Positions 1,200 to 62,470 of a stretch of 64,000 nt of DNA are shown piece by piece. The translations under genes were made by a program, and so were the position numbers. How positions within the stretch are numbered: the stretch's first letter is position 1; each line of letters begins with the position of its first letter. Origin of the DNA: an uncultured Planctomycetota bacterium (GTDB lineage: Bacteria > Planctomycetota > Planctomycetia > Isosphaerales > Isosphaeraceae); the NCBI GenBank assembly GCA_963823665.1, contig CAWGMQ010000010.1:2432001-2496000 (forward strand). The letters are read 5' to 3'. Under the pieces are notes generated by a model. That model was not told the DNA's origin and ran no database searches. It saw only the letters and a program-made list of their open reading frames with translations.

Positions 1200-1309
1200 A
1201 AAAAAAAACCGGCGTGGTCGAACGCCTTCACGCATTCAACCACGCCGGCTTACTCGTCAACGAGCCCCCCGGCTGTCCCGGGTTGCCCTTCATCTAGTCG
1301 TCCGACGAC
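1200..1309 (-). promoter_or_regulatory. Structured leader/attenuator copy 1 (upstream of DUF3309-CsbD-GlsB)
   Basis: Consensus core, terminator hairpin CCGGCGUGGUUGAA..UUCGACCACGCCGG, U9 tract. Confidence 0.85.
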
Positions 1310-1368
1310 ATCTTTTCAGAGTCTACCGGAGCCGGCTGTCTGTTGACATCGGCTCATCTTCATCTCCC

Positions 1369-2908: not shown

Positions 2909-3322
2909 TCATGCTTGATTAACGGTCCCATTCCAGGTTCCTACGGGTATGCCCGTAGCGAGTAGGAACACCTGCACCACAGTGCCGGTCGTGAATACCT
3001 GCACGACCGTGCCTGTCTTCGTTTCGATCTCTGCCTTGGCCTCGCGCACCTCCACACCGGTGATGCGTTTGATTTCATTCCGCAGCCAATCGGCCGAGTC
3101 GTTGAACAACTGCCGGTGAAACTCCTCCACCTGAGACGCCCCTTCCGGGGTCTGGGCCAGGGCCCTCTCGGCTGGCGACAAGGCGCCATGCAGGGTGATG
3201 ACCAGCGTCTCTTCGCCCAGGACCACCGTCACCGATTTGGGCACGTGGCCCGTTCGCCGTTCCTCGAAAGCCGCCGCTGCCTCGGCGACCTGTTGCGCCA
3301 TAGTCAGATTGGGCTTCTCCAT
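2909..3322 (-). CDS. DUF2294 (MpsC/YbcI-like) protein, divergent subtype
   Basis: TGHVPKSVTV..LVITLHGALSPAERAL..IKRITGVEV; similar to the three other paralogues. Confidence 0.75.
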   Translation of the reverse strand: MEKPNLTMAQQVAEAAAAFEERRTGHVPKSVTVVLGEETLVITLHGALSPAERALAQTPEGASQVEEFHRQLFNDSADWLRNEIKRITGVEVREAKAEIETKTGTVVQVFTTGTVVQVFLLATGIPVGTWNGTVNQA

Positions 3323-3367
3323 TCGCTGCCTCCCCGGCGGAACCGACCGCTCGTGTCGCCATGTGCC

Positions 3368-3478
3368 AAAAAAAAACCGGCGCGGTGGAACACCCCGAGG
3401 GTATTCGACCACGCCGGCTTACTCGTCAACGGGCCTCCCGACACAGCCGGGTTGCCCTTAATCTAGTCGTCCGACGAC
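3368..3478 (-). promoter_or_regulatory. Structured leader/attenuator copy 2 (upstream of DUF2294, lipoprotein, ferritin, Csp)
   Basis: Consensus core, terminator, U9; promoter TTGCTA-N17-AACAAT at 3570-3542. Confidence 0.85.
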
Positions 3479-3701
3479 CTCCGCCCAAGTTTTTATCGGA
3501 GCCAAGGACCGGTTTTCACACGGGACCAGGCTCACCCCCTCATTGTTTCAAGCCTGGCTGGAAATAGCAAGAGCATTGTCTTTCTTTTTGGTATGATGAT
3601 TCCTCAACAGCTTGGAAGACGGACGATCCGGAGTCGGTTGCCATCGGGCACAGTCCCAGCGCGTGGCTGCCGGCAGGGCGCGGGCCGCCCTCGAGGTCAA
3701 C

Positions 3702-4091
3702 ATGAAGTCTCAGGGCGAAATCGAAGCCGCAATCTGCGATGGGATCACGCGCTTCGAGCAGGAATACATGGGACGCGGGCCCAAGGACATTCGTGCCCAC
3801 TTGATCGATGATCTCCTCGTGGTCCGCCTTCAGGGCGTCTTGACTGCGGCCGAGCAGCATCTGGTCAAGACACTCCCGGCCGAAAAGGGCAGAGACCTGC
3901 TCAAGCAAGTGCGCACCCATCTCCTCGAGACAGCCCGGCCGCTGCTGGAGGCAATGATCAAGGATATCACGGGCGTGAACATTGTGAGTCTGCACCACGA
4001 CATCAGCACGATGACCGGTGAAGAAGTTTTGATCTTCACGCTCGCCGATCCACCGTCGGTCCGCGAATCCCGCAAAAAGTCGGGCTCTTGA
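3702..4091 (+). CDS. DUF2294 (MpsC/YbcI-like) protein
   Basis: MKSQGEIEAAI..EYMGRGPKDI..LVVRLQGVLTAAEQHL..SLHHDISTMTGEEV. Confidence 0.85.
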   Translation: MKSQGEIEAAICDGITRFEQEYMGRGPKDIRAHLIDDLLVVRLQGVLTAAEQHLVKTLPAEKGRDLLKQVRTHLLETARPLLEAMIKDITGVNIVSLHHDISTMTGEEVLIFTLADPPSVRESRKKSGS

Positions 4092-4181: not shown

Positions 4182-4463
4182 TCATGGCGGCTGACCCGCG
4201 AGCTGGCGCCGGATCTGGAGTGGCTCGCGCCAGCAGGCCAGGTCTCTTTCCCCTTCTCCGGTCAGGAGCCATCCGGGCGCCACGCCGGTGACATTGATGA
4301 AACGAAGGATCGCCAAACCGGGGATCGTCACGCCGGATTCGTAACTGGCCCAGGTTGCAGGCAGGAGCCCGAGGTCCGCCGCCAGAAGAGAAGCACCATG
4401 TTCGCCATACATCGCGAGGCGAACCTCACGCAGACGGCGGGCGAGGGCTATACTCCGTTTCAT
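4182..4463 (-). CDS. XRE-like helix-turn-helix protein
   Basis: [28 protein letters not shown]. Confidence 0.7.
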
Positions 4464-4741: not shown

Positions 4742-4855
4742 AAAAAGAAAAAGCCGATGCGGTGGAATACCCCCAAAAGGTACTCGACCACATCGGCCTA
4801 CTGGTCAACGAGCCCCCCGGCTATCCCGGGTTGCCCCTCGCCTAGTCGTCCGAGC
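4742..4855 (-). promoter_or_regulatory. Structured leader/attenuator copy 3
   Basis: Core with CCGAU variant, terminator, U tract; promoter TTGCTT-N16-CACAAT at 4943-4916. Confidence 0.8.
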
Positions 4856-4989
4856 ATATCCAGCAAGTCGTAACAGTGCGAGTTACACGCAAGTATTCGA
4901 CTTACTGTGGCGTTCATTGTGCCAAAGAACACTGGAAAAGCAAGCGAGTAGTACCGGGTAGGTCGCATCATCGATCGGGGACGGCTCGA

Positions 4990-5910: not shown

Positions 5911-6009
5911 GAGAAGTATCCTCCTCTGAGCTCGGCGATATTTCGGCCGGCTCGTCGATCAAGTCGATATCTCGCGCGAGGCAACCATTCGATGGCACCA
6001 CAAGAAAAC

Positions 6010-6118
6010 AAAAAAAGCCGCCATGGCGGAACACCCCGAGGTATTCGACCACGCCGGCTTACTCGTCAACGGGCGCCCCGCCAGGTGCGGGTTGCCCTTC
6101 GTCTAGTCGTCCGACGAC
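6010..6118 (-). promoter_or_regulatory. Structured leader/attenuator copy 4 (upstream of desaturase; weakened terminator stem)
   Basis: Core with CCCGC/GCGGG covariation; promoter TTGCTA-N17-TATGAT at 6211-6183. Confidence 0.8.
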
Positions 6119-6357
6119 TTCTTATATCGAGTCTTGCTTTGATTCACAAGTCAGGAAAAGCTTTAGGTCTATTGCAAGATTCATCATACATCGCCCGGGC
6201 CGAAATAGCAAGTGAATTGTTTGCGCTCTCGTATGATTTTCCGCGGATGGCAGGCTGCCCGAGGATGCTCGCTCCGCCGCAGTTGCACCAGGACTTTTCC
6301 AACCCGCTGGCATCGTATTTGCGAAAAGTATCGGACGTCAAACCGAATTTGGAGCAG

Positions 6358-7674: not shown

Positions 7675-7724
7675 TGCTCCCTCCGTTCCTCGAGGAGAAA
7701 ACCGACGGGCCAGTCACCGCCAAC

Positions 7725-7834
7725 AAAAAAACCGACGTGGCCGAACACCCCAGGGTATTCGTCCACGTCGGCTTACTCTTCAATGAGCCCCCCCGGACCA
7801 AGCCAGGTTGCCCTTTATCAAGTCGTCCGACGAC
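7725..7834 (-). promoter_or_regulatory. Structured leader/attenuator copy 5 (upstream of hybrid kinase)
   Basis: Core with CCGAC variant, terminator, U7; promoter TTGCTA-N16-GATAAT at 7921-7894. Confidence 0.85.
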
Positions 7835-8044
7835 ACCTGCCGTGATTCTCGCAGCGGCCGACCGCCAAATGCGATGGGCTGCATTCCCCGCTCATTATCC
7901 CGCGCAGCGCGGGAATAGCAACGCCATGCTTTGTTTTGACAGATGGAAACGATCTATCCCGCGTTCAAGATGCTCGTATTTCGCGCCGGGCGTGAACGTG
8001 CCACCGTCCGTTTCCACTTTCCCTTGCCGGAACGGGAATGCGCG

Positions 8045-12690: not shown

Positions 12691-12802
12691 AAACAAGAAA
12701 GCCGGCGTGGTCGAACACCCGAAGGTATTCGACCACGCCGGCTTACTCGTCAACAGGCCCACCGGCAAAGCCGGGTTGCCCTTCCTCAAGTCGTCCGACG
12801 AC
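12691..12802 (-). promoter_or_regulatory. Structured leader/attenuator copy 6 (upstream of methyltransferase-nitrilase-MMPL)
   Basis: Core, terminator with cUUCGg loop; promoter TTGCTA-N16-GACAAT at 12894-12867. Confidence 0.85.
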
Positions 12803-13189
12803 ATCCGCTCATGTTTTGGTGGGATTTGCCCGCTTGCTCATCAAGCAGGCCGTGCGCCCAATTCCTATTGTCCTCTTCGGAGCGTGAATAGCAATAGCAT
12901 TTCGGCTTTTTCTCACATGAAAAGCCCCAGATCCAATATCGCCGGGTCAGGCCGTCACAATCGCCCGCCGAGTTAGCCACTTCAGCAGCATCTTCGGGAC
13001 GGTGTATTACAGCCCCGCGTAGATCGACAACGCCGCCAGGAGACCCAGGAACGCCAGCGCGAAGGCGACTCCCGCCAAGGTGCCGAGCATCGGGTGGGTC
13101 AGTGCGGTCGCGAGGAGACGGCCCGTCGATTGGCCTTCGCAGCCGGCGCGTGTAGAGCGTTTCTTTCCATCGCATCGGGTTGCCTCATC

Positions 13190-16107: not shown

Positions 16108-16216
16108 AAAAAAAAAGCCGGCGTGGTCGAGGACCCCCAGGTCCGCGACCACGCCGGCTTACTCTAGGACGAACCGCCCGGCATGGCCGGGCTGCCCTTC
16201 ACTTAGTCATCCGACA
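16108..16216 (-). promoter_or_regulatory. Structured leader/attenuator copy 7
   Basis: Subfamily B core (GUCGGAUGAC), terminator, U9; promoter TTGCTT-N18-TATCAT at 16313-16284. Confidence 0.85.
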
Positions 16217-16509
16217 AATTCAAATCATTTCCGGAAGTCGACGTGCGGTTGTCGCATATCAACACCCACCAAGAACATCTACGATGATACGCGCTGGGAC
16301 GAGAGAAAAGCAAATCTCTTGAGTCTTTATGACCAAAAATCGATCCGGACACTGCGGTCCCGATACCAGTAACAGCGGTCCAGAAAGCAACAATCGTCCT
16401 CGAGCCGCCAGAACACGGTAGCATTTGCCGCGCCGTGGGCCGCGTTCTAAGCGCGTTTGGCACGGAGGATGCTGGCAATTGAACCCGACATCTAGCCGGC
16501 CTGCAAGGA

Positions 16510-19121: not shown

Positions 19122-19230
19122 AAAAAAAAAGCCGGCGTGGTCGAAGACCAAGAGGTCCGCGACCACGCCGGCTTACCCGTCGACAGGCGACCCGAAATAC
19201 CCGGGCCGCCCTTCGTCCAGTCATCCGACA
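19122..19230 (-). promoter_or_regulatory. Structured leader/attenuator copy 8
   Basis: Subfamily B core, terminator, U9; promoter TTGCTT-N18-TACCAT at 19324-19295. Confidence 0.85.
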
Positions 19231-19445
19231 AATCAAATCAGTTCCGGGAGCCCACATACGGTTACCCTATGTCGGCTCCCGTCAAACATACGTCATGGTA
19301 CGCGCGGCGGCGAGAGAAAAGCAAGCCTATTCGCTCTGCACCCGGAAAGTGCGTCCCTGAGTTCTTGGGCAAGGAAAGCCCCGGCTCGACAGGAAGAAAT
19401 GTCCGCGCACTGAGGGCTCGAGGGCACGTCGGCCGGCTCCTGGCG

Positions 19446-20159
19446 TCAGCCGAGCAAGCGGTCCAGCTCCTCTGCGACCATTGCGTAGCATTCGCATGAA
19501 GCGGCTTCCATCCCCTTCCGGTCCAGGACGGTCACCCTGCCCCGGTGGTACCTGATCAGCCCGGCGGTCTGGAGGCTGCCCGCCGCCGCGGTTACGGTGG
19601 GGCGGCGGACGCCGAGCATCTGCGCCAGGAACTCATGGGTGAGCGGGAACTCGTCGGTCCCCACCCGGTCGTGGCTCATCAGCAGCCAGCGGCACAGGCG
19701 TTTCTTGACAGAGTGCCGGTGGTTGCAGACGGTCGACTGCGAAATCTGGTTAATCATTGCCTGGGTGCTCCGCTGGACCAAGCTGTACAACGTGCCGCGC
19801 CGCAGCATCTCCTCCTGAAAGACCTTGGTTTCCATCCGGAGCGCATCGCCTGCAACCTGCGAAATCGCTCTGGTCAGGCTGCTCTGGCACCCGAGGAAGA
19901 CAGGGGTGCCGACCATGCCCTCGTTGCCGATGATGCCCACTTCGAGCGAGAAGCCGCCGTCCATGATGATCACCAGGGAAACCACCCCGTCCAGCGGGAA
20001 ATGGACGTGCGGAATCGGGCCGTTCGGTTCGTAGAGAATGTCCCTCAAGGGTAAGGACACCTTCTCCAGATGGGGACGCAGGCGGTCGTATTCCTTCCTC
20101 GGCAAAGCAGCCAACAGCCGATTCTCGCCGAGAACGTGGACTCTCCGAAACTTAGCCAT
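19446..20159 (-). CDS. Crp/Fnr family transcriptional regulator
   Basis: NRLLAAL..GNEGMVG..RLCRWLL..THEFLAQMLGVRR..SCECY. Confidence 0.9.
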   Translation of the reverse strand: MAKFRRVHVLGENRLLAALPRKEYDRLRPHLEKVSLPLRDILYEPNGPIPHVHFPLDGVVSLVIIMDGGFSLEVGIIGNEGMVGTPVFLGCQSSLTRAISQVAGDALRMETKVFQEEMLRRGTLYSLVQRSTQAMINQISQSTVCNHRHSVKKRLCRWLLMSHDRVGTDEFPLTHEFLAQMLGVRRPTVTAAAGSLQTAGLIRYHRGRVTVLDRKGMEAASCECYAMVAEELDRLLG

Positions 20160-20260
20160 TCTGCCCCTCCCCGCTGCGGTCGGGGCCGGGGGGTTCGCTG
20201 CACCCGGACCCGACCCTTGCCCTTCTCGTTCCATTATCGCAAGAAAAATTCTTGCCGTCT

Positions 20261-20329
20261 TGTCGGAAACCGTACAGACGATGAGCGTCTGCCAGCAGAC
20301 AAAGTGATAGAATGGTCTGCTGGCAGACA
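20261..20329. promoter_or_regulatory. Three palindromic operator-like boxes between divergent Crp/Fnr genes
   Basis: TGTCGGAAACCGTACA; GTCTGCCAGCAGAC and its exact reverse complement flank TGATAGAAT. Confidence 0.55.
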
Positions 20330-20414
20330 GACCAGGAAGGTCGATCTGTGCCGCCGCTATACGCCTTGCAGTCGTCCTGCGGACGCTGGCGGGGAGCAGG
20401 GAGGGTGGGGAGCC

Positions 20415-21128
20415 GTGTCCAAAACCAAACCGCTCGCTGTGCCGCCGGGCAACCGGCTCCTGAGCCGGTTGCCCGCGGACGACTACCAGCGCCTTCTGCC
20501 CCGGCTACAACTCGTCCCGCTGACGTTGAAGCACGTCCTTTACGAGGCCCGATCGTCCATCGACTACGCCTACTTCCCCAACCGTGGTGTCGTCTCCGCT
20601 CTGACCGTGATGGAGGACGGCAGGGCCATCGAGGTAGCGACGATCGGCGACGATGGCATGGTCGGCCTCCCACTCCTCGTCGGGGCCACGATAACGGCCA
20701 ATCGGGTGATCGTGCAGGTTCCAGGCGACGCCCTGCGGATGCCGGAAGCGGCGCTGCGGGAAGAGGTGAGCCGGGAAAGCGCCTTGCGCCGGTTGCTGAT
20801 CCTCTACCACACCGCCTTTCTTGCCGAGGTTTCTCAGGCCGTGGCTTGCAATGGCCTGCACTCGGTTCACCAGCGCTGTTGCCGATGGCTGTTGATGACC
20901 CAGGACCGGGCGCACTCGGATGTCTTCCCAATGACGCACGAGTTCCTGGCCGAGATGCTCGGCGTGCGGCGCTCTACTGTCTCCGAGGTTCTCGAACCCT
21001 TCCAGCAGAAAGGATTGATCCGTTACAGCCGGGGGAAACTCACTGTCCTCGATCGGGATGGCTTGATGGCCGGCTCTTGCGAGTGCTACCGGAGCATCGC
21101 CGATGAATTCGCACGATTGTTCGGTTGA
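20415..21128 (+). CDS. Crp/Fnr family transcriptional regulator
   Basis: Paralogue of 19446-20159; THEFLAEMLGVRR HTH, SCECY. Confidence 0.9.
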   Translation: MSKTKPLAVPPGNRLLSRLPADDYQRLLPRLQLVPLTLKHVLYEARSSIDYAYFPNRGVVSALTVMEDGRAIEVATIGDDGMVGLPLLVGATITANRVIVQVPGDALRMPEAALREEVSRESALRRLLILYHTAFLAEVSQAVACNGLHSVHQRCCRWLLMTQDRAHSDVFPMTHEFLAEMLGVRRSTVSEVLEPFQQKGLIRYSRGKLTVLDRDGLMAGSCECYRSIADEFARLFG

Positions 21129-21269
21129 ACACAAAAGGAAGGCTCGCGACGGGCGCAGCAAATAGCGCTTGCCTTGTCTGTCGGAAAGCGTACGGACGAC
21201 TTTGAAAACAGGTAGTAAAAAGACATAACACGATAAGTTGGTGGACCAAACGAGGGTTTTGGCGTTCCT

Positions 21270-21647
21270 ATGAAAACACGGGGCGAGATCGAAGCCGCCG
21301 TTTGCGAACTGATGAGACGCTTCCAACTGGAGTACATGGGCCGTGGACCCAGGGACATTCACGCCCACCTGATCGGTGATTTCCTTGTGGTCCGCCTCCA
21401 GGGCGTGTTGACCGCGGCTGAACAGCAGCTCGTCAAGTCGATCCCGTCCGCGAACGGGAGGGACCTGCTCAAACAAGTACGCACTCATCTGATCGAAACG
21501 GCTCGGCCGGTCATGGAAGCAATGATCCAGGAGGTCACAGGCGTCAAGGTGTTGAGCCTGCACCACGACATCAGCACGGTGACCGGAGAAGAGGTCGTGC
21601 TCTTCACTCTGGCCAGGTTGCCTGATTTTAGGCAGCCGAACAAATGA
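21270..21647 (+). CDS. DUF2294 (MpsC/YbcI-like) protein
   Basis: MKTRGEIEAAV..GRGPRDI..LHHDISTVTGEEV. Confidence 0.85.
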   Translation: MKTRGEIEAAVCELMRRFQLEYMGRGPRDIHAHLIGDFLVVRLQGVLTAAEQQLVKSIPSANGRDLLKQVRTHLIETARPVMEAMIQEVTGVKVLSLHHDISTVTGEEVVLFTLARLPDFRQPNK

Positions 21648-21674
21648 CTGTACTATGAATCGGGGTGCGAAAAC

Positions 21675-23633
21675 GTGGAAGCGAACGATGACAACCGCGC
21701 ACACCAACTGGAACTCGCCCTTGCGTACGCAGAGAATATCGTCGCGACTTTGCGAGAGCCATTTGTCGTTCTCGATAACAGCCTGCGGGTTCGCTCGGCC
21801 AACGCGGCCTTCTACCGGAACTTTCATGCCTCGAATCCAGAGACGGAGGGCCGCTTCGTCTACGACTTGGGCAACGGTCAGTGGAACATCCCCCAACTGC
21901 GGACGCTACTCACACAAGTCCTGAGCAACAGCCATCCCGTCGAAGATTTCGAGGTTGAACACGACTTCCCCGCTCTCGGGCGAAGGAACATGCTGCTCAA
22001 CGCCCGCAGATTCCCTCCAGAGAGCAACGACCCGCATTTGGTCCTTCTTGCCATCGAGGACATTACCGACCGCAGGCGGGCCGCAGCCGCCATGGAGCAC
22101 TCCGAAGTCCGGTACCGGCGGTTGTTCGAGATGGCCAAGGACGGCATTTTGATCCTGGACGCCAACACGGGAAAGGTGATCGACGCCAACCCCTTCATGA
22201 CGGCCTTGCTGGGCTACTCGCACGACGATTTCTTGGGCAAGGAACTGTGGGAGATCGGCCTGTTCCGAGACATCAACGAGAGCCGGGCCGTTTACCGCGA
22301 ACTGCAAGAGAAGGGCTACGTCCGCTACGAGAATCTGCCGCTGGAAAACACAAGCGGGCACAAGGTCGAGGTCGAGTTCGTCAGCAACGTCTATGGAGAG
22401 AACAACCACCAGGTCGTTCAATGCAACATCCGCGACATCACCGAACGCAGCCGCCTTCAGCGACTGACGCAAGAGCAAGCGCAGGCACTCGCCGATTTGG
22501 ACCGTCGCAAGGATGAGTTCCTGGCGATGCTCGGCCATGAACTTCGAAACCCGCTTGCCCCCATCCTCAATGCCGTTCTTCTCTTGCGCCTGCACAGCAC
22601 CCGGAATCGTCTACAGGGCATCGAGAACCCGGTACTTCAGCAATCCGCCGGCATCATTGAGCGGCAGGTGGGGCAACTGACACGGATCGTTGATGAATTG
22701 CTCGAAGTCTCTCGCATCACCACGGGCAGGATTCAGCTTCGCCAAGAATCGATCGCCGTCGGCGTCGTGGCGGAAAATGCGGTGGCGACGGTCCGCTCGC
22801 TGATCGAACAACGTAAGCATAAACTGACGGTGTCGCTGCCGACGCAAGCGATCTGGGTGCACGCGGACGCGGCCCGGTTGGAACAGGTCGTCGTGAACCT
22901 CCTCACCAATGCCGCCAAGTACACGGACCGAGGCGGTCACGTCTGGTTGACTTTGCAACAAGAAGGCGCGGACGCGGTGCTGCGTGTGCGGGATACGGGC
23001 GTCGGCATCGCCCCCGAAATACTGCCCCGCATCTTCGACCTGTTCACGCAGGCAGAACGGTCCCTGGATCGCGCGCAAGGCGGGTTGGGTATCGGACTGG
23101 CTCTGGTGCAGCGCCTCGTGGAAATGCACGGCGGATCGGTGGCGGCTTCCAGCACATTGGGACAAGGCAGCGAGTTCGTCGTGCGTCTGCCGGTGACGGC
23201 GCCCCCCCGGCCGCGGGCGTCATCGCCGCCCGCCAAAACGGCCCAGCCGATCGCAACATCCTTGCGAGTGTTGGTGGTGGATGACAACGTGGATACGGTG
23301 ACGACTCTGGCGTTGCTGGCGAAAGAATCCGGCTGCGACGTTCGTACGGCGTACGATGGCTCGACGGTTCTGGAAGCGGCCCTGGATTACCGGCCGGACG
23401 TCGTGCTGTTGGACATCGGATTGCCGGGCCTCAATGGCTATGAGGTAGTGAAGCAGCTCCGTCAGCAGCCCGCTCTTCAGAACATCGTGGTCGTCGCCAT
23501 GACTGGGTACGGCGGGGAGGGTGACGTTCAGCGCTCGTTTGCGGCGGGCTTCGATCACCACTTGGTCAAACCGGGCGATTTCGGGAAAGTGCTGCAAATC
23601 TTGGCGACCGTCTCGGAGTTGCCGGCACGATGA
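21675..23633 (+). CDS. PAS-PAS hybrid histidine kinase (HisKA-HATPase-REC)
   Basis: GHELRNPL, NLLTNAAKY, GLGIGL, LLDIGLPG..HLVKP. Confidence 0.92.
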   Translation: MEANDDNRAHQLELALAYAENIVATLREPFVVLDNSLRVRSANAAFYRNFHASNPETEGRFVYDLGNGQWNIPQLRTLLTQVLSNSHPVEDFEVEHDFPALGRRNMLLNARRFPPESNDPHLVLLAIEDITDRRRAAAAMEHSEVRYRRLFEMAKDGILILDANTGKVIDANPFMTALLGYSHDDFLGKELWEIGLFRDINESRAVYRELQEKGYVRYENLPLENTSGHKVEVEFVSNVYGENNHQVVQCNIRDITERSRLQRLTQEQAQALADLDRRKDEFLAMLGHELRNPLAPILNAVLLLRLHSTRNRLQGIENPVLQQSAGIIERQVGQLTRIVDELLEVSRITTGRIQLRQESIAVGVVAENAVATVRSLIEQRKHKLTVSLPTQAIWVHADAARLEQVVVNLLTNAAKYTDRGGHVWLTLQQEGADAVLRVRDTGVGIAPEILPRIFDLFTQAERSLDRAQGGLGIGLALVQRLVEMHGGSVAASSTLGQGSEFVVRLPVTAPPRPRASSPPAKTAQPIATSLRVLVVDDNVDTVTTLALLAKESGCDVRTAYDGSTVLEAALDYRPDVVLLDIGLPGLNGYEVVKQLRQQPALQNIVVVAMTGYGGEGDVQRSFAAGFDHHLVKPGDFGKVLQILATVSELPAR

Positions 23634-23843
23634 GAATCCGCGAGAATTCGAGGATACCTGCCAGCCAGCGCCAAGGGGCCCGAACCTCGGGCGGCGTCCC
23701 GCGAGACGTTCTGGTCTCAATAATACCGGTCGCAACACCGGGGACTTGTGTCCTCTTGCCGTAGCGTGCATACTGATGAATGTTCTGCGGGATTCGACAA
23801 GAGACAAGCGCACGTCGGCTCCCGGAAATGACATGATTTGATT

Positions 23844-23952
23844 TGTCGGATGACTAGACGAAGGGCGGCCGGGCTATTCCGGGTCGTCTGTCGAAGAGTA
23901 AGCCGGCGTGGTCGAGGACCTGAGGGTTTTCGACCACGCCGGCTCTTTTTTT
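23844..23952 (+). promoter_or_regulatory. Structured leader/attenuator copy 9 (upstream of HPr)
   Basis: Subfamily B core, terminator, U tract; promoter TTGTGT-N17-CATACT at 23746-23774. Confidence 0.85.
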
Positions 23953-24063
23953 CACTCGCGTTTACTCGGCTCGACCCGAGCGCCTTAAGAGGCCAGAATG
24001 CGACGATCCAATTCTGAATCCTCATCCGATCCATCATCCGAAAACGGCTGCGTTCATCCGGGA

Positions 24064-24372
24064 ATGAGCCACGAGATGCCAGTCGCCCGTCGGCAAGTCG
24101 AAATTACGAACCGTCTCGGTCTGCACCTGCGGGCCGCCGATCAGTTCGTCAGGCTCGCTCGAGGGTTCCAGTGTGAGATTCGGGTGCATTACCAGGGCAA
24201 CGCATGCAACGGCAAAAGCATCCTTGAGCTGATGACTTTAGCCGCCGAGTGCGGCGCACGTCTCGACCTGGAGGCGTGCGGGCCCGACGCGGTTGCCGCC
24301 GTCGAGGCTCTGGCCGTTGTGGTCGCGGCTGGATTCTACCAGGACGAGAACGAAAGAGAGCAATCCGCATGA
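24064..24372 (+). CDS. ptsH: HPr family phosphocarrier protein
   Basis: GLHLRAA (His15) and NGKSILELM (Ser46). Confidence 0.88.
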   Translation: MSHEMPVARRQVEITNRLGLHLRAADQFVRLARGFQCEIRVHYQGNACNGKSILELMTLAAECGARLDLEACGPDAVAAVEALAVVVAAGFYQDENEREQSA

Positions 24373-24518
24373 CGTCCGTGCAACGATGATCTCGCAGATC
24401 CGTGGAACAAGAGATTACAAAAGAATTCACTTGATTTTATCCGACCGCGCGGGACAATGAACATAATCACGGGGCACGCGTGGATTGACATTCGGCTCCG
24501 ATGAAAAGGTGAATCGAA

Positions 24519-24631
24519 GTTGTCGGACGACTAGACAAAGGGCAACCCGGCTTAGTCCGGGGGGCTCGTTCTTGAGTAAGCCGGCGTGGCCGAACCCCTG
24601 TGGGTGTTTGGCCACGCCGGCTTTTTTATTT
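24519..24631 (+). promoter_or_regulatory. Structured leader/attenuator copy 10 (upstream of DUF1328-YihY)
   Basis: Core, terminator, U tract; promoter TTGATT-N16-GACAAT at 24431-24458. Confidence 0.85.
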
Positions 24632-24748
24632 CGCTTGCCGAGGCGTTCCAGGCCGCGGACTCGGTGAGGTCGCTCACCATTCGTGGAGCCTGGGCGTGGG
24701 CCCCGCTCGCGATGAGCACCAGTCTTTTTTATGGAAAGAGAGAATCCC

Positions 24749-24919
24749 ATGCTCGGTTGGGCCATAACGTTCGCGATCCTCGCACTGCTCGCCGGCCTCT
24801 TCGGTTTCATGGCTCTTGAAGGCAGCCTCGCCTTGATCGCCAAGGTTTTGCTGTTCGTTTTCCTGGCCTTTTTCGTGATCTCGCTGATCGTTGGCAGGAG
24901 GCGCGGGCTCACTGTTTGA
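24749..24919 (+). CDS. DUF1328 (UPF0391) small membrane protein
   Basis: MLGWAITF..ALLAGLFGF..IAKVLLFVF. Confidence 0.85.
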   Translation: MLGWAITFAILALLAGLFGFMALEGSLALIAKVLLFVFLAFFVISLIVGRRRGLTV

Positions 24920-29701: not shown

Positions 29702-29729
29702 TTCAATACCTTCCTTTGCCAAAGGGAAC

Positions 29730-29837
29730 AAAAAAACCGACGCGATTGAACACCTGGAAGGTGTTCAATCACGTCGGCTTACTCTGCAACTAGCCACCCG
29801 GCGAACCGGGGTGCAATTTATTTAGTCGTCCGACGAC
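29730..29837 (-). promoter_or_regulatory. Structured leader/attenuator copy 11 (most divergent)
   Basis: Core with compensatory changes, CCCGG-UUCG-CCGGG stem, terminator, U7. Confidence 0.8.
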
Positions 29838-30311
29838 CTGTATCCATTGATCATGCAGCAGCCATTAGCTCCCGCACTCTTCGTATCGTAGGACGGTGAC
29901 TGGCGAACAGCAATGGGCAATCTCGAATTTCGGAAAAAAGAGCAAATGCACATACTATTGCAGCCGTGGTGCGGGTTTCCGTAGTGTTATCCGTAAGTCA
30001 TTCCTCCAATGCGACGCGGGCCGACGAGCGTTGTCGCGGTCCCGCGTCGCTGTCTGGCAGCAGTGGCGAGTGTTCACGCGTGCGCATCCGCCGCGTGGCA
30101 ACACGAGCCGGCCTTTTGAGGAGGCGGCTCGTATTCGTCGTGGCGGCGCCACCTGACGCCGGTTCTCGTTACGCCCCTTGGGGGCGCGGTCGAGCCACTG
30201 GTACATGCCCCAGAAGCCGTCCAGTCCGCGCGCATAGACGACCGGATGGGGTCCATCCGCGACTTGCGTTGACTGGCCACGGTGGGGTTCCTGTCCGGGT
30301 TCCGTGAGGAC

Positions 30312-30701
30312 TCAACGGCCCCGGAGCACCAGTCCGGTGATGAGCCCAGCCACCAGGCCGATGCCAAAGGCCGCGATCACTGTCTCCGTCGGGTGGCTGT
30401 GGACCAGACCCTCGGCACTGTCGTACCGTTCGCGGATCTGGTCGCTCGCCTGTTGGGCGTACCGGCCGGCGGCCTCCGACGCATGCGCGACCGCCGATGA
30501 GCCGCGCGAGGTCATATCGGAGAAGAACTTCTCGATCGCCTCACGTTTCTCGCCGGTCTTCTGCTGGATCCGGCCCACGAGTTGCTCGATATTTCCCTCT
30601 AGCGCCTGGAGATCGTCCTCAGTCAACTGGTTCCAGTGCGCCCTTGCCAGGGCGCAGATCTGATTCCAATCTCCGTGAAACGTCTGCACGTGAGTCGCCA
30701 T
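30312..30701 (-). CDS. CsbD-like protein with DUF883/ElaB-like C-terminal anchor
   Basis: W.QLTEDDL..G..EQLVGRIQQKTGE; HP..AFGIGLVAG. Confidence 0.8.
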   Translation of the reverse strand: MATHVQTFHGDWNQICALARAHWNQLTEDDLQALEGNIEQLVGRIQQKTGEKREAIEKFFSDMTSRGSSAVAHASEAAGRYAQQASDQIRERYDSAEGLVHSHPTETVIAAFGIGLVAGLITGLVLRGR

Positions 30702-30729
30702 GATCTTCGATCGAAGGCGCTGCGGCGCC

Positions 30730-31212
30730 TCAATCCCTGACCGGATCAATCGGCCCATTCGGCCGCTCCGCTCCCCGGGCCGACGGTGAGAGACCGCTCG
30801 GACTTACCGTCCTCGTCGGCTGAATTTGCTCGAGCCAATGCAGCGTGTAATTCTGGCCCGCACGGACGGCCACCGGCAACAAGAAATCCCAGTTGGCGAG
30901 CAGAATACTCCAGCCGATCCTCGAGCGTTCCTGACCGTCGGCGCTGGCGCCCGCGACCGGTTCAGCAGCAAGGGCCCCGTCAGCCGGGCGTGCGTCGCTG
31001 GCCCTGACCTTCGGGTGCCTTCCCGTGTAGACCAGATAGCCGACCGCCGCCGCCGCGCCCAGGGCGATCCAGGGATACATCCACGTGTACCGTCCCCAGT
31101 CGATGACAGCCTCGGCGCCGGCGACGGATTCGCTCACGTGTTCATGGCGCTCGCGGCGGATCGCCGCCATCTGATGATAGATCTCATCGACGTCATTCGA
31201 TCCCGTGACCAC
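30730..31212 (-). CDS. Hypothetical membrane protein (paralogue of 55857-56390)
   Basis: Shared DWGRYTWMYPWI.LGAAAA.GYL. Confidence 0.65.
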   Translation of the reverse strand: MVTGSNDVDEIYHQMAAIRRERHEHVSESVAGAEAVIDWGRYTWMYPWIALGAAAAVGYLVYTGRHPKVRASDARPADGALAAEPVAGASADGQERSRIGWSILLANWDFLLPVAVRAGQNYTLHWLEQIQPTRTVSPSGLSPSARGAERPNGPIDPVRD

Positions 31213-31391
31213 GGCTGACTCCCTGTAGTTTCCCGGAATCTGCCCCGAATCATTGAATGAACGGTGTTCGGGCAGCCTCACGACGAAACTGCCCCCGCCA
31301 AACAAGACCAAAGGACCGTCCGCCTCCTCCTCAAGCCGAAGACCAGCGAGATCACGAAGAGGACCAGGAAAACGAACCGCAACAAGCGCGC

Positions 31392-31700
31392 TCAGCGCCC
31401 TGCGTTCTTCATCTTGTCACCGACGTTGTGCACAACATCCTTGGTCTGTTCGGCAACGGTGTGCGCTGCGTCCTTGACCTTCTCGCCGACATTGTGTGCG
31501 GCGTCCTTGGTCTTTTCGGCCACATTGTGCACGGCGTCCTTGACCTTGACTCCGGCGTCATGCGCGACATCCTTGACCTTCACGCCGGTATCGTGCGCGA
31601 CGTCCTTGACTTTCTCCGCGGCATCGTGAAATCCCTCTTTCGGCCAAATCCTCGAGCGGAGAATTTGAGAGCCTCGCGCTTCGCATGCCGCCGACGGCAC
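31392..31700 (-). CDS. LEA/YtxH-like 11-mer repeat protein (start uncertain)
   Basis: Tandem KVKDAAHNVGE-type 11-aa (33-bp) repeats at 31420-31627. Confidence 0.65.
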   Translation of the reverse strand: MPSAACEARGSQILRSRIWPKEGFHDAAEKVKDVAHDTGVKVKDVAHDAGVKVKDAVHNVAEKTKDAAHNVGEKVKDAAHTVAEQTKDVVHNVGDKMKNAGR

Positions 31701-37249: not shown

Positions 37250-37479
37250 CCCCGTTCCTCCGTCATCGAGCAAGCTTTCTCGTCTCTCATTCTAGCCACC
37301 GCTGCACGAACCGCGAGCCGGAATATGCCAGGCGCCCGGTGTCGGGGTTTCCCCCACAGTAAGTTTTCCGCGTCCCCGACTTTCGGGTCACTGGTGCGTC
37401 CGATTATGGTATTCGAGACTGTGCTGTGTTCCGCACAGCGGGACGACGGAGCCAACCGGGAAAAGTCGAGAGATCGTCC

Positions 37480-37911
37480 ATGAAACAACGTCTGCTCATT
37501 GCTGATCACGATGCCGAGCTGCGCGAGCGCTACCGAAAGTTTCTGACAGAGCGGGGCTACCACGTGCAAACCTCCACAGACGGTCTGGACTGCCTGGCGA
37601 AACTGCGTGAGGCGACGCCGGCCGTGCTCGTGCTGGATCTGGAGCTTCTTTGGGGTGGAGGTGACGGCGTGCTTGCCTGGCTGCGCGAGGAGCGTCGAGC
37701 GCCCAGGATCCCCGTGCTGCTCACGGCCAGCGCTCCCGATCGGCAGGATATGGGCGAATTCAACGGGCCGCCCGTCGTGGACTATCTGCCGAAGCCCTTT
37801 GCGCTCGACGGTCTGCTTCAGAGTATCCGCTCCGCCACCGCCAAAAAGGACCGAACGCCGCCGTCAAACCTGGATCGAGTTCCTGGCTACCCTTGGCTTT
37901 CTGTCGATTAG
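37480..37911 (+). CDS. Single-domain response regulator
   Basis: LLIADHD..VLDL..YLPKPF. Confidence 0.8.
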   Translation: MKQRLLIADHDAELRERYRKFLTERGYHVQTSTDGLDCLAKLREATPAVLVLDLELLWGGGDGVLAWLREERRAPRIPVLLTASAPDRQDMGEFNGPPVVDYLPKPFALDGLLQSIRSATAKKDRTPPSNLDRVPGYPWLSVD

Positions 37912-38151
37912 GTAAGGGGTACCGTCGATGATCCAGTCCGACCCGCCCATGGTCCGGTCTATCGGTGAGCACCCCAAGGAGGAAAAGGACTCGATCCGGG
38001 CGACCGCTCTGCTCCCCACGCAGTGCGTGGAAGACCACTGCCTGGCCGAACGAGTCGAGGTCAATAACTCATGACTCAGGCTATATCAGAAAGTGTAGGC
38101 GATCGCCCTTGCGGGCCTGCGACTGCGCATCGGGAAATCTCTAACTTCGGT

Positions 38152-38592
38152 GTGAAGTCCCTGGGCGAGATCGAAGCCGCCATTTGCGAAGTCATCAGGC
38201 GTTTTGAACACGAGTACGTCGGCCGCGGGCCCAGGGACATTCGCGCCCACCTGATCGGTGATCTCCTCGTTGTCCGCCTTCAGGGAGTGTTGACCGCTGC
38301 TGAACAGCAACTGGTCAAGTCGTTCGCAGCCGACAGGGGCAGGGACCTGGTCAAACAAGTACGGACGCACCTGATCGAAACGGCGCGGCCGGTGATTGAA
38401 GCCGTGATCCAAGCGGTCACAGGCGTCGAGGTGTTGAGCCTGCACCACGACATCAGCACCGTGACCGGCGAAGAGGTCGTCCTCTTCACCCTGGCCGAGT
38501 CGCCGAATTTTAGGCAGCCAACGAAACGATACGGCTACGAGTCGGGATCGGCGTCGTACCTGAGGCCGGGAACGATACGATCGAGCAAGTGA
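38152..38592 (+). CDS. DUF2294 (MpsC/YbcI-like) protein
   Basis: Close paralogue of 21270-21647. Confidence 0.85.
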   Translation: MKSLGEIEAAICEVIRRFEHEYVGRGPRDIRAHLIGDLLVVRLQGVLTAAEQQLVKSFAADRGRDLVKQVRTHLIETARPVIEAVIQAVTGVEVLSLHHDISTVTGEEVVLFTLAESPNFRQPTKRYGYESGSASYLRPGTIRSSK

Positions 38593-38656
38593 TGGAGCGG
38601 CTACGAACACGGGGTCTCTTCCGAGCAGACTAACCAATTACCGCAGTGGCCAGGAC

Positions 38657-39193
38657 ATGGACCAACCTAACTCAAACCGCAAGGAGGCTTCTGACACGCG
38701 ACAACCACAAGCGAATCTCACTGATCCACCAGAGGAGACGAGCCACGCGGCCGAATTCGAGCCAACGGTCCGGCAGCCCCGCGAAAAGCCCGGCGTGCTC
38801 GTAGTCGATGACGAACACATGGTGCGGATCATGGTGCAACTGGGCCTGGAGCGAAGCGGCTTTGACGTGTTGTTAGCCCGGAGTGGACCTGAAGCGATCG
38901 ATCTCTATCGCGGGCACGCGGAAGAGATTGCGGTGGTGCTGCTCGACACCTGCATGCCCGGGCTGGACGGGCTGGATACACTCAAGGTCTTGCGCGAACT
39001 GAATCCCGATGTCCTGGCCTGTTTCATGAGCACCGAATCCAGCGCCTACGAGCCGGAAGAGCTGGTAGCGCGCGGGGCCGCCTATGTCATCAGCAAGCCG
39101 TTTCGACTGGACGACCTGGCGAGCATCCTCACTCTGCTTGCCCATCACGTGTCCACCGATCTTCGCCCGTCCGGCAGGGCATGCCGACGGTGA
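38657..39193 (+). CDS. Response regulator receiver protein
   Basis: VVDDE..LLDTCMPG..SKPF. Confidence 0.85.
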   Translation: MDQPNSNRKEASDTRQPQANLTDPPEETSHAAEFEPTVRQPREKPGVLVVDDEHMVRIMVQLGLERSGFDVLLARSGPEAIDLYRGHAEEIAVVLLDTCMPGLDGLDTLKVLRELNPDVLACFMSTESSAYEPEELVARGAAYVISKPFRLDDLASILTLLAHHVSTDLRPSGRACRR

Positions 39194-39225
39194 ACCAGGC
39201 AAGAGGCCGAATCGCGGAGCCGCCG

Positions 39226-39588
39226 ATGCGCACAATCCTTGTGGTAGATGATGACGCCGATACGTGCCGCAACATGGTGGATTTGTTCGAAGACCTGGGC
39301 TACGGAATCGAGTCCGCGGAGGGCGCCCACACGGCCCTGAATAAGGCTCAACAACAGCCGTACGACCTGGGCCTGCTGGACCTGCGGATGCCAGGCATGG
39401 ATGGCCTGACCCTGTGCCGTCACCTCAAGCGGTTGCAGCCGCCCATGGTGACGATGATCGTCACAGCTTACGGCGGCAGCGACCTGGACGAGGAAGCACG
39501 AGCGGCAGGTGCTTGCCACGTGCTTCTCAAGCCTGTAGATTTTCCTGAGTTGATCGCCCTGGTCGAGAGGGCACTGCTAGGCCCGTGA
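39226..39588 (+). CDS. Single-domain response regulator
   Basis: VVDDD..LDLRMPG..TAY..KPVD. Confidence 0.88.
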   Translation: MRTILVVDDDADTCRNMVDLFEDLGYGIESAEGAHTALNKAQQQPYDLGLLDLRMPGMDGLTLCRHLKRLQPPMVTMIVTAYGGSDLDEEARAAGACHVLLKPVDFPELIALVERALLGP

Positions 39589-55027: not shown

Positions 55028-55060
55028 GGTGGCATTCCTGTACGAGACCCGTCGTCGGAC

Positions 55061-55450
55061 TCAACGGCCCCGGAGCGCCAGCCCGGCGACGAGCCCGGCC
55101 ACCAGGCCGATGCCAAACGCCGCGATCACCGTCTCAGCCGGGTGGCTGCGGACCAGACCCTCGGCATTGTCGTAGCGCTGGCGGATCTGATCGCCCGCCT
55201 GGTGGACGTACCGGCCGGCGGCCTCCGAAGCATGCGCCACCGCCGCTGAGCCGCGCGAGGCCGCTTCCGTGAAGAAACGCTCGATCGACTCACGCCCCTC
55301 GCCGGTCTTTTGCTCGATCCGGCCGACGAGCTGCTCGAACTTCCCTTCCAGCACTGCGAAATCGTCCTCTGTCAACTGACTCCAGCGCTGCTTTGCCAGA
55401 GCGCAGAGGTGTTTCCATTCTCCCTGAATTGCCTGCATGTTGGACGCCAT
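55061..55450 (-). CDS. CsbD-like/DUF883-like protein (paralogue of 30312-30701)
   Basis: Direct sequence similarity. Confidence 0.8.
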   Translation of the reverse strand: MASNMQAIQGEWKHLCALAKQRWSQLTEDDFAVLEGKFEQLVGRIEQKTGEGRESIERFFTEAASRGSAAVAHASEAAGRYVHQAGDQIRQRYDNAEGLVRSHPAETVIAAFGIGLVAGLVAGLALRGR

Positions 55451-55647
55451 GATCGGTGGGCCTTCTGGTTAGGGGAGCGGCCGGTGCGATTCCGGCTTCC
55501 CTGGTGGAATTCAATTTAATCTCGATGAGTCATCATGAACACTCGCGAACTGCCCGCGGCAGCTCTCACAGAGGTCGTCGACAAACTCGGAAACGCCCTC
55601 GAATTCAGCCGAGCTCGAACCGGGCGCACGAGCCGTCCCGTGACCGT

Positions 55648-55860
55648 TCACGGACGTCTGATCAGCCATCCCAGAGCAACTCCTATGCAGAGCGTGATAC
55701 CTAGAGCCTTGACGGGTTCCTTCACCAGGAAGTCCCGCACCACTGCCGTCCCGTCGGCCAGCCGCTCACGGGCGAACGCCACGTCCTGCCGGCCCATCGC
55801 CTTGAGCTCGTCCAGTTGCGGAGTAAACTCCGCATTCATCCCTCGAACATGATCATTCAT
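55648..55860 (-). CDS. Small DUF883/ElaB-like membrane-anchored protein
   Basis: VRDFLVKEPVKALGITLCIGVALGWLIRR. Confidence 0.6.
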   Translation of the reverse strand: MNDHVRGMNAEFTPQLDELKAMGRQDVAFARERLADGTAVVRDFLVKEPVKALGITLCIGVALGWLIRRP

Positions 55861-56390
55861 CGTCGTATCCTCCAAAAAGTTTGTTTCGATCGAAGCCGCC
55901 GCTGGGCGCACTGTCTTGACGCGCCACCGGGCCCATCCTGCCGCGCCGTTCTCTCGGACGACGCCGAGAGACCGGTCCCGCCCATCGTATTCATCGGCTG
56001 CTGGTAGTCGAGCCAATGGAGCATGTAGTTCTGGCCCGCACGGATGGCCACGGGGAACAGAAAGTTCCAGGGGGCGAGCAAAAGATTCCGGCCGGTCTTG
56101 CGCGGCTTCTGACCCTTCTGGGCGGGTCCCGTGACCGGTAGAAGAGCCCCGGCTGGATCGGCCAGACTCGCCGGCTCGCCCGCGGCTCTTGGATGACTTC
56201 CGGTGTAAGCCAGGTAGCCGGCCGCAGCCGCGGCGCCCAGACCGATCCAGGGATACATCCACGTGTACCGTCCCCAGTCCATGACCGCCTCGGCGCCGGC
56301 GACGGATTCGCTCACGTTTGTATGACGCTCGCGCCGGATCTCCGCCATCCGATCAAAAATCTCTTGGACGTCGTTCGATCCCGTGACCAC
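55857..56390 (-). CDS. Hypothetical membrane protein (paralogue of 30730-31212)
   Basis: Direct similarity; GGAGGG RBS. Confidence 0.65.
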   Translation of the reverse strand: MVTGSNDVQEIFDRMAEIRRERHTNVSESVAGAEAVMDWGRYTWMYPWIGLGAAAAAGYLAYTGSHPRAAGEPASLADPAGALLPVTGPAQKGQKPRKTGRNLLLAPWNFLFPVAIRAGQNYMLHWLDYQQPMNTMGGTGLSASSERTARQDGPGGASRQCAQRRLRSKQTFWRIRR

Positions 56391-56410
56391 GATTCCCTCC
56401 CCGAGGGCCC

Positions 56411-56617
56411 TTAGCGGCCTACGTTCTTCATCTTCTCGCCGACGTCGTGCACAACATCCTTGCTCTTCTCGGCAACGACGTGCGCAGCGTCCCCGATCTT
56501 CACACCGGCGTTGTGCGCGGCGTCCTTGACCTTCACACCGGCGTCGTGCGCGGCGTCCTTGACCTTCACACCGGCGTCGTGAATTCCCTCTTTCAGCGTC
56601 TCACCTGTGTTCGACAT
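56411..56617 (-). CDS. LEA-like 11-mer repeat protein
   Basis: HDAGVKVKDAA tandem 33-bp repeats; AGGAG RBS. Confidence 0.7.
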   Translation of the reverse strand: MSNTGETLKEGIHDAGVKVKDAAHDAGVKVKDAAHNAGVKIGDAAHVVAEKSKDVVHDVGEKMKNVGR

Positions 56618-56767: not shown

Positions 56768-56996
56768 TAGATTTATCATGGCGTTTCGCGTGATTCGCGA
56801 GTGGCCGCCCGGGGCCAGAGCCATTTCCACATCGAGAGCAAACCCTCGATCGTCCGCAGCGATTCCGCCGCACTGCATGTTTTCCCCTGTTGAATCACGC
56901 ATCGACAGCACAGTGAACATTCGCGAATACAGTTTATTGGGCCACCCCATTACGAGAGTGGTTGGCGCTGGCGATCGAGCCACAAGGGCGCGAACG

Positions 56997-57103
56997 AAAA
57001 AAAACCGGCGTGGTCGAGAACCCTCAGGTCTTCGACCACGCCGGCTTACTTTTCGACGGACCACCCGGAAGAACCGGGCTGCCCTTCGTCTAGTCATCCG
57101 ACA
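56997..57103 (-). promoter_or_regulatory. Structured leader/attenuator copy 12
   Basis: Subfamily B core, terminator, U8; promoter TTGTTA-N18-TATGAT at 57198-57169. Confidence 0.85.
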
Positions 57104-57228
57104 GATTCAACTCATCTCCGGGAGGCGACTAATTCTTATCCCAAGTCTACTCCCGATGAATACACCTCATCATAGACGCTGCAGCGTGGGGATAACAAGT
57201 CGATTCGTGTTTCGCAGTTCCGCGACCC

Positions 57229-58560: not shown

Positions 58561-58938
58561 ATGCGCGCCACGAAGAAAGCTGGGCCCAGCCTTCCCAAGC
58601 CCGCAGCCCTCAAGAGTACAGGAGCAGCCCCTGGCTACCGTCGGGGAGCCGAGCCGAGCGGCGTCGGCAAGCGCGGCTCGGTCGTGATTCCGGCTGCGCT
58701 CCGACGGCGCTACGGCATCGAGGAAGGTTCGTTTGTCGTCGCGGAGCCTTGCGAGGGCGGCGTCCTGATCCGGCCGGCCCTGGTCCTTCCAGTCGAGGTT
58801 TATACACCCGAGCGCAAGGCCCAGTTCCTGCTGTCAAACGCGATCGATGCCGCCGATTATGCCCGCGCCGTAGCCGAGGTTCGCGCAATGGGCTTGCATC
58901 CGAACAAGATCCCGCACTACAAGCGACGCGGGGTCTAA
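58561..58938 (+). CDS. AbrB/MazE/SpoVT-type antitoxin
   Basis: VGKRGSVVIPAALRRRYGIEEG..GVLIRP. Confidence 0.85.
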   Translation: MRATKKAGPSLPKPAALKSTGAAPGYRRGAEPSGVGKRGSVVIPAALRRRYGIEEGSFVVAEPCEGGVLIRPALVLPVEVYTPERKAQFLLSNAIDAADYARAVAEVRAMGLHPNKIPHYKRRGV

Positions 58939-58941
58939 CGG

Positions 58942-59151
58942 GTGGATCGTCTCTTCCTCGACGCCAACGTCCTACTCTCCGCCGCGTGGCGCGCCGACGC
59001 GGCGCTTCAGAGGTTGTGGCGATTGGATAGCGTGGTGCTGCTGTCCTCGAGTTACGCTCTCGAGGAGGCCCGCCGAAACCGTGAAACACCCGCCCAACGA
59101 GGCCGGCTGACCCGGTTGCGTCGCAAGGTGCGGGCAGCTTCTGCGGGATAA
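58942..59151 (+). pseudogene. PIN-domain (VapC-like) toxin, C-terminally truncated
   Basis: LFLDANVLLSA..SSYALEEARRN; only 69 aa. Confidence 0.75.
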
Positions 59152-62380: not shown

Positions 62381-62470
62381 CGGTCGATTCTCCAGGTGAT
62401 CCGTCGGCAATGCGCCTCTTCAGTCTATCCCCAACCCGGCACGATTGCAGCCGATCGCCAGCACCCGGGG

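Follow-up and report, generated by a model that had tools for sequence, protein, structure and literature searches.

The window analyzed here, the entire 64,000-nt stretch of DNA, belongs to a 16.46-Mb planctomycete genome (G000; 91.9% complete) with seven matches to Pfam family PF10057 (MpsC/DUF2294). Two DUF2294 genes leave one intergenic region of the window in opposite directions. The canonical gene, type A (3702..4091, plus strand), scored 131 bits against PF10057 and encodes our candidate RNA-binding antiterminator; its divergent neighbor, type B (2909..3322, minus strand), scored 81.6 bits and encodes a protein with a pI of 5.2. Both scores exceed the curated Pfam cut-off for this family (23 bits), PF10057 is the sole Pfam domain in each protein, and the two sequences are 28% identical. 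Type B starts at an ATG at 3322, with GGAGG 7 nt upstream, and is the first gene behind a leader element, copy 2, whose U-tract ends at 3368, 46 nt before that ATG. These data bear out the layout given in the preliminary description, namely a divergent DUF2294 gene 46 nt behind the terminator of copy 2 and a canonical paralogue pointing away from the same intergenic region. The order of divergent type A gene, leader, and type B gene is kept in other planctomycetes. Two more type A genes lie on the plus strand of the window, one (21270..21647) flanked by a Crp-family gene and a PAS-kinase-receiver gene and the other (about 38152..38592) amid three stand-alone receiver genes, and a further, fifth DUF2294 gene sits 2.9 kb ahead of the window start. 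The clusters of Crp, PAS-kinase, and stand-alone receiver genes that enclose these type A genes span 20070-24919 and 37426-39588, and an HPr-like gene is itself under a leader copy.

For copy 2 (minus strand), a regular-expression scan detected a putative sigma70-type promoter (3542..3570; TTGCTA, 17 nt, AACAAT). Downstream, an antiterminator rod (3411..3478), defined by RNAalifold and covariation, overlaps an intrinsic terminator (3368..3419), predicted by folding as a long hairpin followed by nine U's. GGACGAC (3472-3466) and GUAAGCC (3422-3416) form the core of the rod around a symmetric 3x3 internal loop, and the 3' strand of the rod doubles as the 5' arm of the terminator. Eight of the 12 copies in the window have promoter-like boxes of the form TTGCNN-16/18-NANNNT that lie 87-99 nt ahead of the core, a count from a regular-expression scan with no shuffle control.

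No copies were found with a reversed-pattern control. The remaining minus-strand copies precede DUF3309, CsbD-like, and GlsB/YeaQ (Transgly_assoc) genes (1200..1311), a 93-aa ORF at 4182-4463 without a Pfam family (4744..4859), a fatty-acid desaturase gene (6008..6120), a hybrid histidine kinase gene (7723..7836), methyltransferase, nitrilase-family, and MMPL genes (12692..12804), a C92-peptidase-like gene (16108..16220), an ORF without a Pfam family (19122..19234), two alpha/beta-hydrolase genes (29728..29839), and the gene of a small repeat protein without a Pfam family (56996..57107). The plus-strand copies precede the HPr-like gene (23840..23954) and DUF1328 and YihY/BrkB genes (24517..24630). 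A covariance model built from the window copies (R1) detected 26 copies in the genome, excluding 18 further weak opposite-strand shadows; thirteen of the 26 belong to the window's island and four surround a type A gene at C10:304 kb. One copy lies immediately ahead of one of ten csrA genes in the genome (G000:C5:1203638-1204109; L318), and a diverged copy and a truncated type A gene point away from each other (G000:C4:1405525-1406051; L007).

Searches of Rfam 15, the PyrR site included, gave no match at gathering score anywhere in the window; the element had no match at E ≤ 5 in 3 loci, and no match fell on the element in 15 loci. The searched literature neither describes the leader RNA nor reports that PF10057 proteins bind RNA; the available part of the main text of PMC11109978 has no such motif, and its supplement, which lay outside our search, may list one. 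The leader and its DUF2294 genes form a real and conserved unit that is undescribed in the searched literature, as had been supposed from the window. Contigs from three soil metatranscriptomes, mostly from relatives less than 95% alike, cover the leader and both DUF2294 genes, and one runs from the leader to the type B gene; such contigs carry no strand, ends, or level and could derive from DNA. We also considered a leader peptide or a REP-like repeat. Both were rejected on the single orientation of the copies relative to downstream genes, the upstream promoter-like boxes, and the conservation of the loop alone across phyla.

The leader can adopt two folds. In the first, a rod of 60-75 nt, GG-NNG-AY pairs with RU-ARG-CC at the base around the one symmetric 3x3 loop. 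The second fold is the terminator, whose 5' arm is the 3' strand of the rod base, making the folds mutually exclusive. Covariation was assessed for both folds in an alignment of 65 diverse elements (A6). Eleven antiterminator pairs were 75.5% paired, compared to 68.9% in shuffles (none of 500 reached the observed value) and 21-45% in slid registers, and ten terminator pairs were 95.2% paired over the 65 sequences, with double changes in nine. Column 72 of A6 covaries both with column 6 (CG 24, UA 19) and with column 122 (GC 33, AU 31), its partners in the two folds, which is the signature of a switch. The detector behind most rows of A6 demanded four core pairs, and the 100% pairing of these four therefore arises by construction; the pair next to the core, which the detector left free, still covaries (0.63 vs 0.42). 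For the full-length RNA, the minimum-free-energy structure was the terminator in 225 of 230 elements (167/170 planctomycete and 58/60 other), and the default state is therefore off. Only about 10 bases are conserved, all in the simple rod, and there is no conserved tertiary element. Two exclusive, covarying folds, with a rod that overlaps a terminator, thus give the leader the anatomy of a protein-held antiterminator, in line with the preliminary description.

Does the RNA travel with DUF2294? Of 300 Planctomycetota genomes sampled, 25 gave a PF10057 match. Model R1 detected the RNA in 6 of these 25 and in none of 55 negatives, a figure that understates co-occurrence because R1 is blind to variants such as GGCAGAU/AUAGGCC. 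With a broader model (R2), the RNA was present in 11 of 25 DUF2294-positive genomes and 0 of 53 unselected negatives, although in four of the five genomes gained the hits fell on training loci or next to them (the training set included G006, G030, and G070); R2 gave no genome-level hit in the other 14. R2 also matched G055, a PF10057-negative genome chosen because the pattern had matched it, and did not match G211. Pattern hits in G048 and G182 were judged by eye to be chance. Conversely, of 79 planctomycete loci fetched by the RNA pattern, 40 had a DUF2294 gene within 4 kb, and in 26 cases a type A gene adjoined the leader and diverged from it.

This linkage crosses phyla. We fetched 81 loci by protein similarity alone, one from a viral collection and the others from metagenomes (the best 80 among 566 confirmed), and scanned them with a pattern fixed beforehand. 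Thirty-six hits lay no more than 500 nt from DUF2294 (74 kb of sequence) and 3 farther away (385 kb), with 33 of the 81 loci represented; ten shuffles gave 0-3 hits and four altered cores 0-5. When variants such as GGCAGAU/AUAGGCC were allowed, 64 loci had an adjacent element, 3 had a distant element only, and 14 had none, 6 of the latter having less than 300 nt downstream. The element lay behind the DUF2294 gene on the same strand in 58 of the 81, as scored by detectors partly tuned on those loci. These counts overstate independence, because the loci are related. The viral contigs yielded 2 loci per scan and one more element. In the Clostridia record NZ_CP154629.1 (Acetoanaerobium), the same core occurs once in 2.63 Mb, directly behind a DUF2294 gene and ahead of an MFS transporter gene, and a held-out Anoxybacillus leader that separates DUF2294 from SbtA scored 30.7 bits with R2. 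Together with the genome counts, this adjacency substantiates the earlier claim that leader and DUF2294 form a two-part unit. A second long hairpin with a terminator lies upstream of the Anoxybacillus DUF2294 gene (L173:7830-7985), and tandem pairs of elements behind DUF2294 (L214, L226, L236, L241, L242, L243, L252) suggest a steeper switch.

In a second phylum, that of a genome titled delta proteobacterium (G301), PF10057 was found in 5 of 150 genomes, and 4 of these 5 had an adjacent element, two detected at the genome level and two, with weak scores of 22.5 and 16.2 bits, by local search. In the fifth, DUF2294 is accompanied by a degenerate paralogue and SbtA, and no element was hit. Among the 145 negatives, only G306 had the RNA, ahead of a FAD oxidoreductase gene. 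In all, the RNA occurs in three incomplete metagenome-assembled genomes (MAGs; G055, G301, G306) that gave no PF10057 hit; in the 1.5-Mb G301 MAG, three copies of planctomycete type lie together (C2:2328-5925, L266; GC 0.65), and misbinning or transfer is possible.

The preliminary description also proposed a look for the motif upstream of mpsABC and ndhF operons. NuoL-like genes were the first ORF behind the element in 3 of 77 cases. R2 did not score the staphylococcal mpsA leader, nor the fdhF leaders of Priestia and Bacillus licheniformis. In the latter two, DUF2294 is divergent from fdhF (L179:5640-5745 and L181:5700-5812, both minus strand), and a GG...AGU-AAA-CUA rod overlapping a terminator is visible by eye; these leaders are perhaps a distant subtype and were left out of the counts because R2 gives them no score. 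On a Staphylococcus pettenkoferi plasmid (NZ_CP066063.1; L172:3452-3495), a strong terminator-like hairpin and U-tract, again unscored by R2, stand immediately ahead of the start of mpsA (NADH dehydrogenase subunit 5) in an IS6-flanked mpsA-dabA-hyp-DUF2294 cassette.

Targets were assigned by a Pfam scan of the first ORF behind each element, a heuristic choice. Of the 77 such ORFs from metagenome and Clostridia loci and a few planctomycete or G301 loci, 25 were carbon-related: PEPCK (18, many from one clade), SbtA (2), carbonic anhydrase (2), PurE (2), and biotin carboxylase (1). The rest comprised DUF2294 (11), DUF4914 (6), MFS (5), the NuoL-like ORFs, others (16), and ORFs with no family (11). 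The second phylum adds a monomeric isocitrate dehydrogenase and one more operon with carbonic anhydrase. CO2 or HCO3- is used or released by targets of the PEPCK, SbtA, carbonic anhydrase, PurE, biotin carboxylase, and isocitrate dehydrogenase classes. DUF4914 (PF16260) takes the place of PEPCK behind the element in L194, L195, L199, L205, L219, and L273, with a weak PEPCK hit in L205, and is probably a PEPCK-like enzyme. Behind planctomycete-type elements the picture differs. Type B was the first ORF in 24 of 140 cases, and among 83 scanned of the 116 other ORFs there was no PEPCK, SbtA, or carbonic anhydrase; these 83 include YflT (6), DUF3309 (4), CsbD (3), GlsB/YeaQ (3), BON (3), ice-binding (3), ferritin (2), Hsp20 (2), KaiC (2), sigma70 (2), and CsrA (1), the same general-stress set as in the window. 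The PEPCK/DUF4914 arrangement is retained in some planctomycetes that have a type A gene alone, and the stress regulon therefore looks like rewiring. The CO2/bicarbonate theme proposed earlier is strong among targets outside this genome; here the targets are stress genes, and DabA (PF10070) was found neither in G000, at 91.9% completeness, nor among the 43 window proteins.

Targets so coherent in inorganic carbon across phyla could also be explained by a riboswitch that works without protein and senses bicarbonate/CO2 or a carboxylation metabolite, DUF2294 being just a linked accessory protein. The three MAGs with RNA and undetected DUF2294 suit such a riboswitch, as does an S. aureus mpsC deletion without a growth phenotype (available part of PMC6689103), but a simple rod that conserves only about ten bases and no tertiary element does not, and the same core here serves an unrelated stress regulon. 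Gene order weighed most heavily in our assessment: a riboswitch target would follow its leader, but type A mostly precedes the leader or points away from it. Fusions of DUF2294 to receiver domains, described below, further indicate a regulatory protein, and we regard a protein-free riboswitch as unlikely.

With the RNA behind the DUF2294 gene in those 58 of 81 loci, or the gene divergent in the 26 planctomycete cases, type A does not, as a rule, follow the leader. The genes of the antiterminators BglG, LicT, and HutP, likewise, are usually not under their own leaders but ahead of them. The gene that is under the leader in the window, type B, had been proposed as an RNA-binding autoregulator. 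We aligned 94 canonical sequences, which share 36-89% identity with type A (whose residue numbering is used), and found F18, G24, R25, P27, E51, L54, K68, R71, D100, S102, G106, and E107 invariant. In type B the structural invariants are kept, but R25, R42, K68, R71, D100, S102, and E107 are replaced, and four other second paralogues also lack most of the residues replaced in type B. Planctomycete type B proteins form one supported group in a quick tree. The RNA was found in all five genomes with a full type B (5 of the 300 sampled), type B is the first ORF behind the leader in 24 of 140 planctomycete cases, and other lineages repeatedly have a degenerate second paralogue behind the element, all of which would fit type B, alone or as an obligatory partner of type A, being the RNA-binding subunit in direct autoregulation. 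An acidic protein without the invariant basic and polar residues is a poor candidate for that role, however, and most element-bearing loci have no B-like gene; we hold this version to be highly improbable. Type A is the likelier binder, and the loss of the invariant residues makes type B more likely a feedback modulator. A complex prediction for type A with type B scored 0.01 against a mark of 0.32 and was given no weight either way.

The DUF2294 family comprises 2,971 clusters at 50% identity. Among 120 longer homologues listed, 68 carry a receiver domain, with DUF2294 C-terminal to it in all 68; a few of these look like frameshift joins, but a family of ~290 aa named from Phycisphaerales is consistent. 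The fusions mark DUF2294 as a signalling output domain. An AlphaFold2 model of type A was confident (pLDDT 95.6), with an alpha-beta-beta-alpha-alpha-beta-beta order. With a pI of 6.2, type A as a whole is not a basic protein. Foldseek gave no match at E ≤ 0.001, PDB sequence searches gave nothing significant, and the ESM Atlas gave no usable hit. Matches in a VIA fold search were unspecific (best Z 6.4-6.6), and HutP was absent among those listed. RbfA, with a type II KH fold, is weakly similar to type A residues 1-105 (Z 5.7, rmsd 3.9, 88 aligned), with a Z within the range of unrelated folds, and no GxxG loop appears in the consensus of alignment A5.

The unit would work like RAT or ANTAR antitermination but is a member of neither. 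As in BglG/SacY/LicT-RAT systems, where the regulator gene is often directly ahead of leader and target, an internally looped hairpin overlaps and excludes the 5' arm of an intrinsic terminator and the default is off. By contrast, the Pfam scan found no CAT or PRD domain in the proteins here, the rod of 60-75 nt with one 3x3 loop compares with a RAT of ~30 nt, and the targets are CO2-handling or stress genes. With ANTAR proteins (AmiR, NasR, EutV), DUF2294 shares stand-alone and receiver-fused forms, an output domain C-terminal to the receiver as in REC-ANTAR, and multi-gene regulons controlled through repeated leaders, but it has an alpha/beta fold without an ANTAR domain, and its RNA is one rod rather than twin hexaloop hairpins. 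HutP of Bacillus subtilis is a small stand-alone alpha/beta ligand-gated antiterminator encoded ahead of its terminator. Its helix/strand order resembles that of type A; HutP, however, reads single-stranded NAG repeats.

Could a general factor bind the leader instead? GGA occurs in 168 of 170 planctomycete cores, within a GUC-GGAN-GAC hairpin in 104, and CsrA-like genes are present in 18 of the 79 planctomycete loci, with one leader copy in this genome ahead of csrA. These features would be expected if CsrA or another general factor were the binder and DUF2294 acted on that protein as a FliW-like partner. CsrA-like genes were found in 0 of the 80 metagenome DUF2294 loci, however, and in the set drawn mostly from outside the planctomycetes GGA is in only 34 of 60 cores. 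We therefore give this scheme the slimmest of chances and regard CsrA as at most a lineage-specific second input.

Published work touches the family at several points. S. aureus MpsC and B. subtilis YbcI belong to the same family (PF10057) and have an inorganic-carbon context; for the DUF2294 genes of G000, no DabA of an MpsAB/DabAB pump was found. We take yrhF and ybcI to be the B. subtilis DUF2294 genes from the names in the sources and the synteny in L179/L181. B. subtilis short RNAs have been listed at matching places, adaB-ndhF (158 nt) and yrhG-yrhF (159 nt) in Table 3 of PMC2965217 and yrhF-yrhE (139 nt) in Table 2 of PMC3574147, and we count them, as far as these tables go, in favor of antitermination. 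According to the available parts of the sources, yrhED encodes a formate dehydrogenase that the usual cues do not induce (PMC8808070), and the function of YrhF is not known (PMC8216469). MpsC of S. aureus has no assigned function, and the available part of PMC6689103 reports that mpsC is dispensable for complementation and for MpsAB transport, that its deletion causes no growth defect, that outside staphylococci the gene lies apart from mpsAB, and that mpsA expression drops in 5% CO2; no RNA partner of MpsC appeared in the searched literature. A silent deletion in air and a drop of mpsA in 5% CO2 are what would be seen if type A bound the leader but promoted termination when ligand is plentiful, by the logic of PyrR or TRAP, and all the linkage evidence fits this direction equally well. 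The conserved core, however, exists solely in the antiterminator fold, and a terminator that is already the more stable structure in 225 of 230 elements needs no help; we consider a terminating role quite improbable.

Multiple observations make antitermination by type A the best reading. First, as noted above, type A is usually encoded ahead of the leader or divergently from it. Second, the switch is off by default. Third, the conserved bases lie only in the on fold. Finally, invariant basic residues and receiver fusions characterize the protein. Counted against this reading are the pI of type A, the three RNA-bearing MAGs without PF10057, the silent mpsC deletion in the available part of PMC6689103, the 14 of 25 genomes and 14 of 81 loci without an element, and the lack of R2 hits on the mpsA and fdhF leaders. 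On balance, we think it probable, by a modest measure, that type A DUF2294 is an RNA-binding antiterminator of a new family that ancestrally reads inorganic carbon; we infer direct binding, the activating direction, the ligand, and the role of type B from these observations. By default, the leader would fold into the terminator and transcription would halt. Active type A would bind the symmetric loop GG-NNG-AY/RU-ARG-CC in the rod base and hold the antiterminator, allowing polymerase to read on. The signal would probably be low CO2/bicarbonate in most lineages. In this planctomycete, where the switch appears to have been multiplied ahead of general-stress genes, the input is probably two-component signalling or a phosphorelay, to which CsrA may add a second, and type B would be a target of the switch that modulates it by feedback rather than a binder.

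A broader proposal, which we offer tentatively and would sooner doubt than assert, is that DUF2294/MpsC is a widespread bicarbonate/CO2-sensing RNA-binding protein, of a fold not yet solved, that antiterminates operons for SbtA, a Dab-type pump, carbonic anhydrase, PEPCK, PurE, and biotin carboxylase, and that planctomycetes rewired it into a stress regulon via receiver fusions, a degenerate paralogue, and CsrA. To our knowledge, CO2/bicarbonate sensing for uptake and carboxylation genes is poorly known in heterotrophic bacteria. If antitermination by type A is correct, a conserved orphan family that bears the name of a transporter subunit, although transport can do without it, would gain a function. 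The unit would also represent a new protein/RNA class of antiterminators and provide a first handle on planctomycete control of general-stress genes. A 120-aa protein and a 100-nt RNA also offer a two-component system amenable to study in vitro.

Two other features of the window deserve mention. A duplicated block with a CsbD gene (30308-31655 and 55057-56608) contains 33-nt tandem repeats, which correspond to 11-residue repeat proteins. At the right end (58610-64000), two adjoining large genes, kinase/TPR-like by eye, contain 144-nt repeats and duplicated 300-nt segments (61110/63311).
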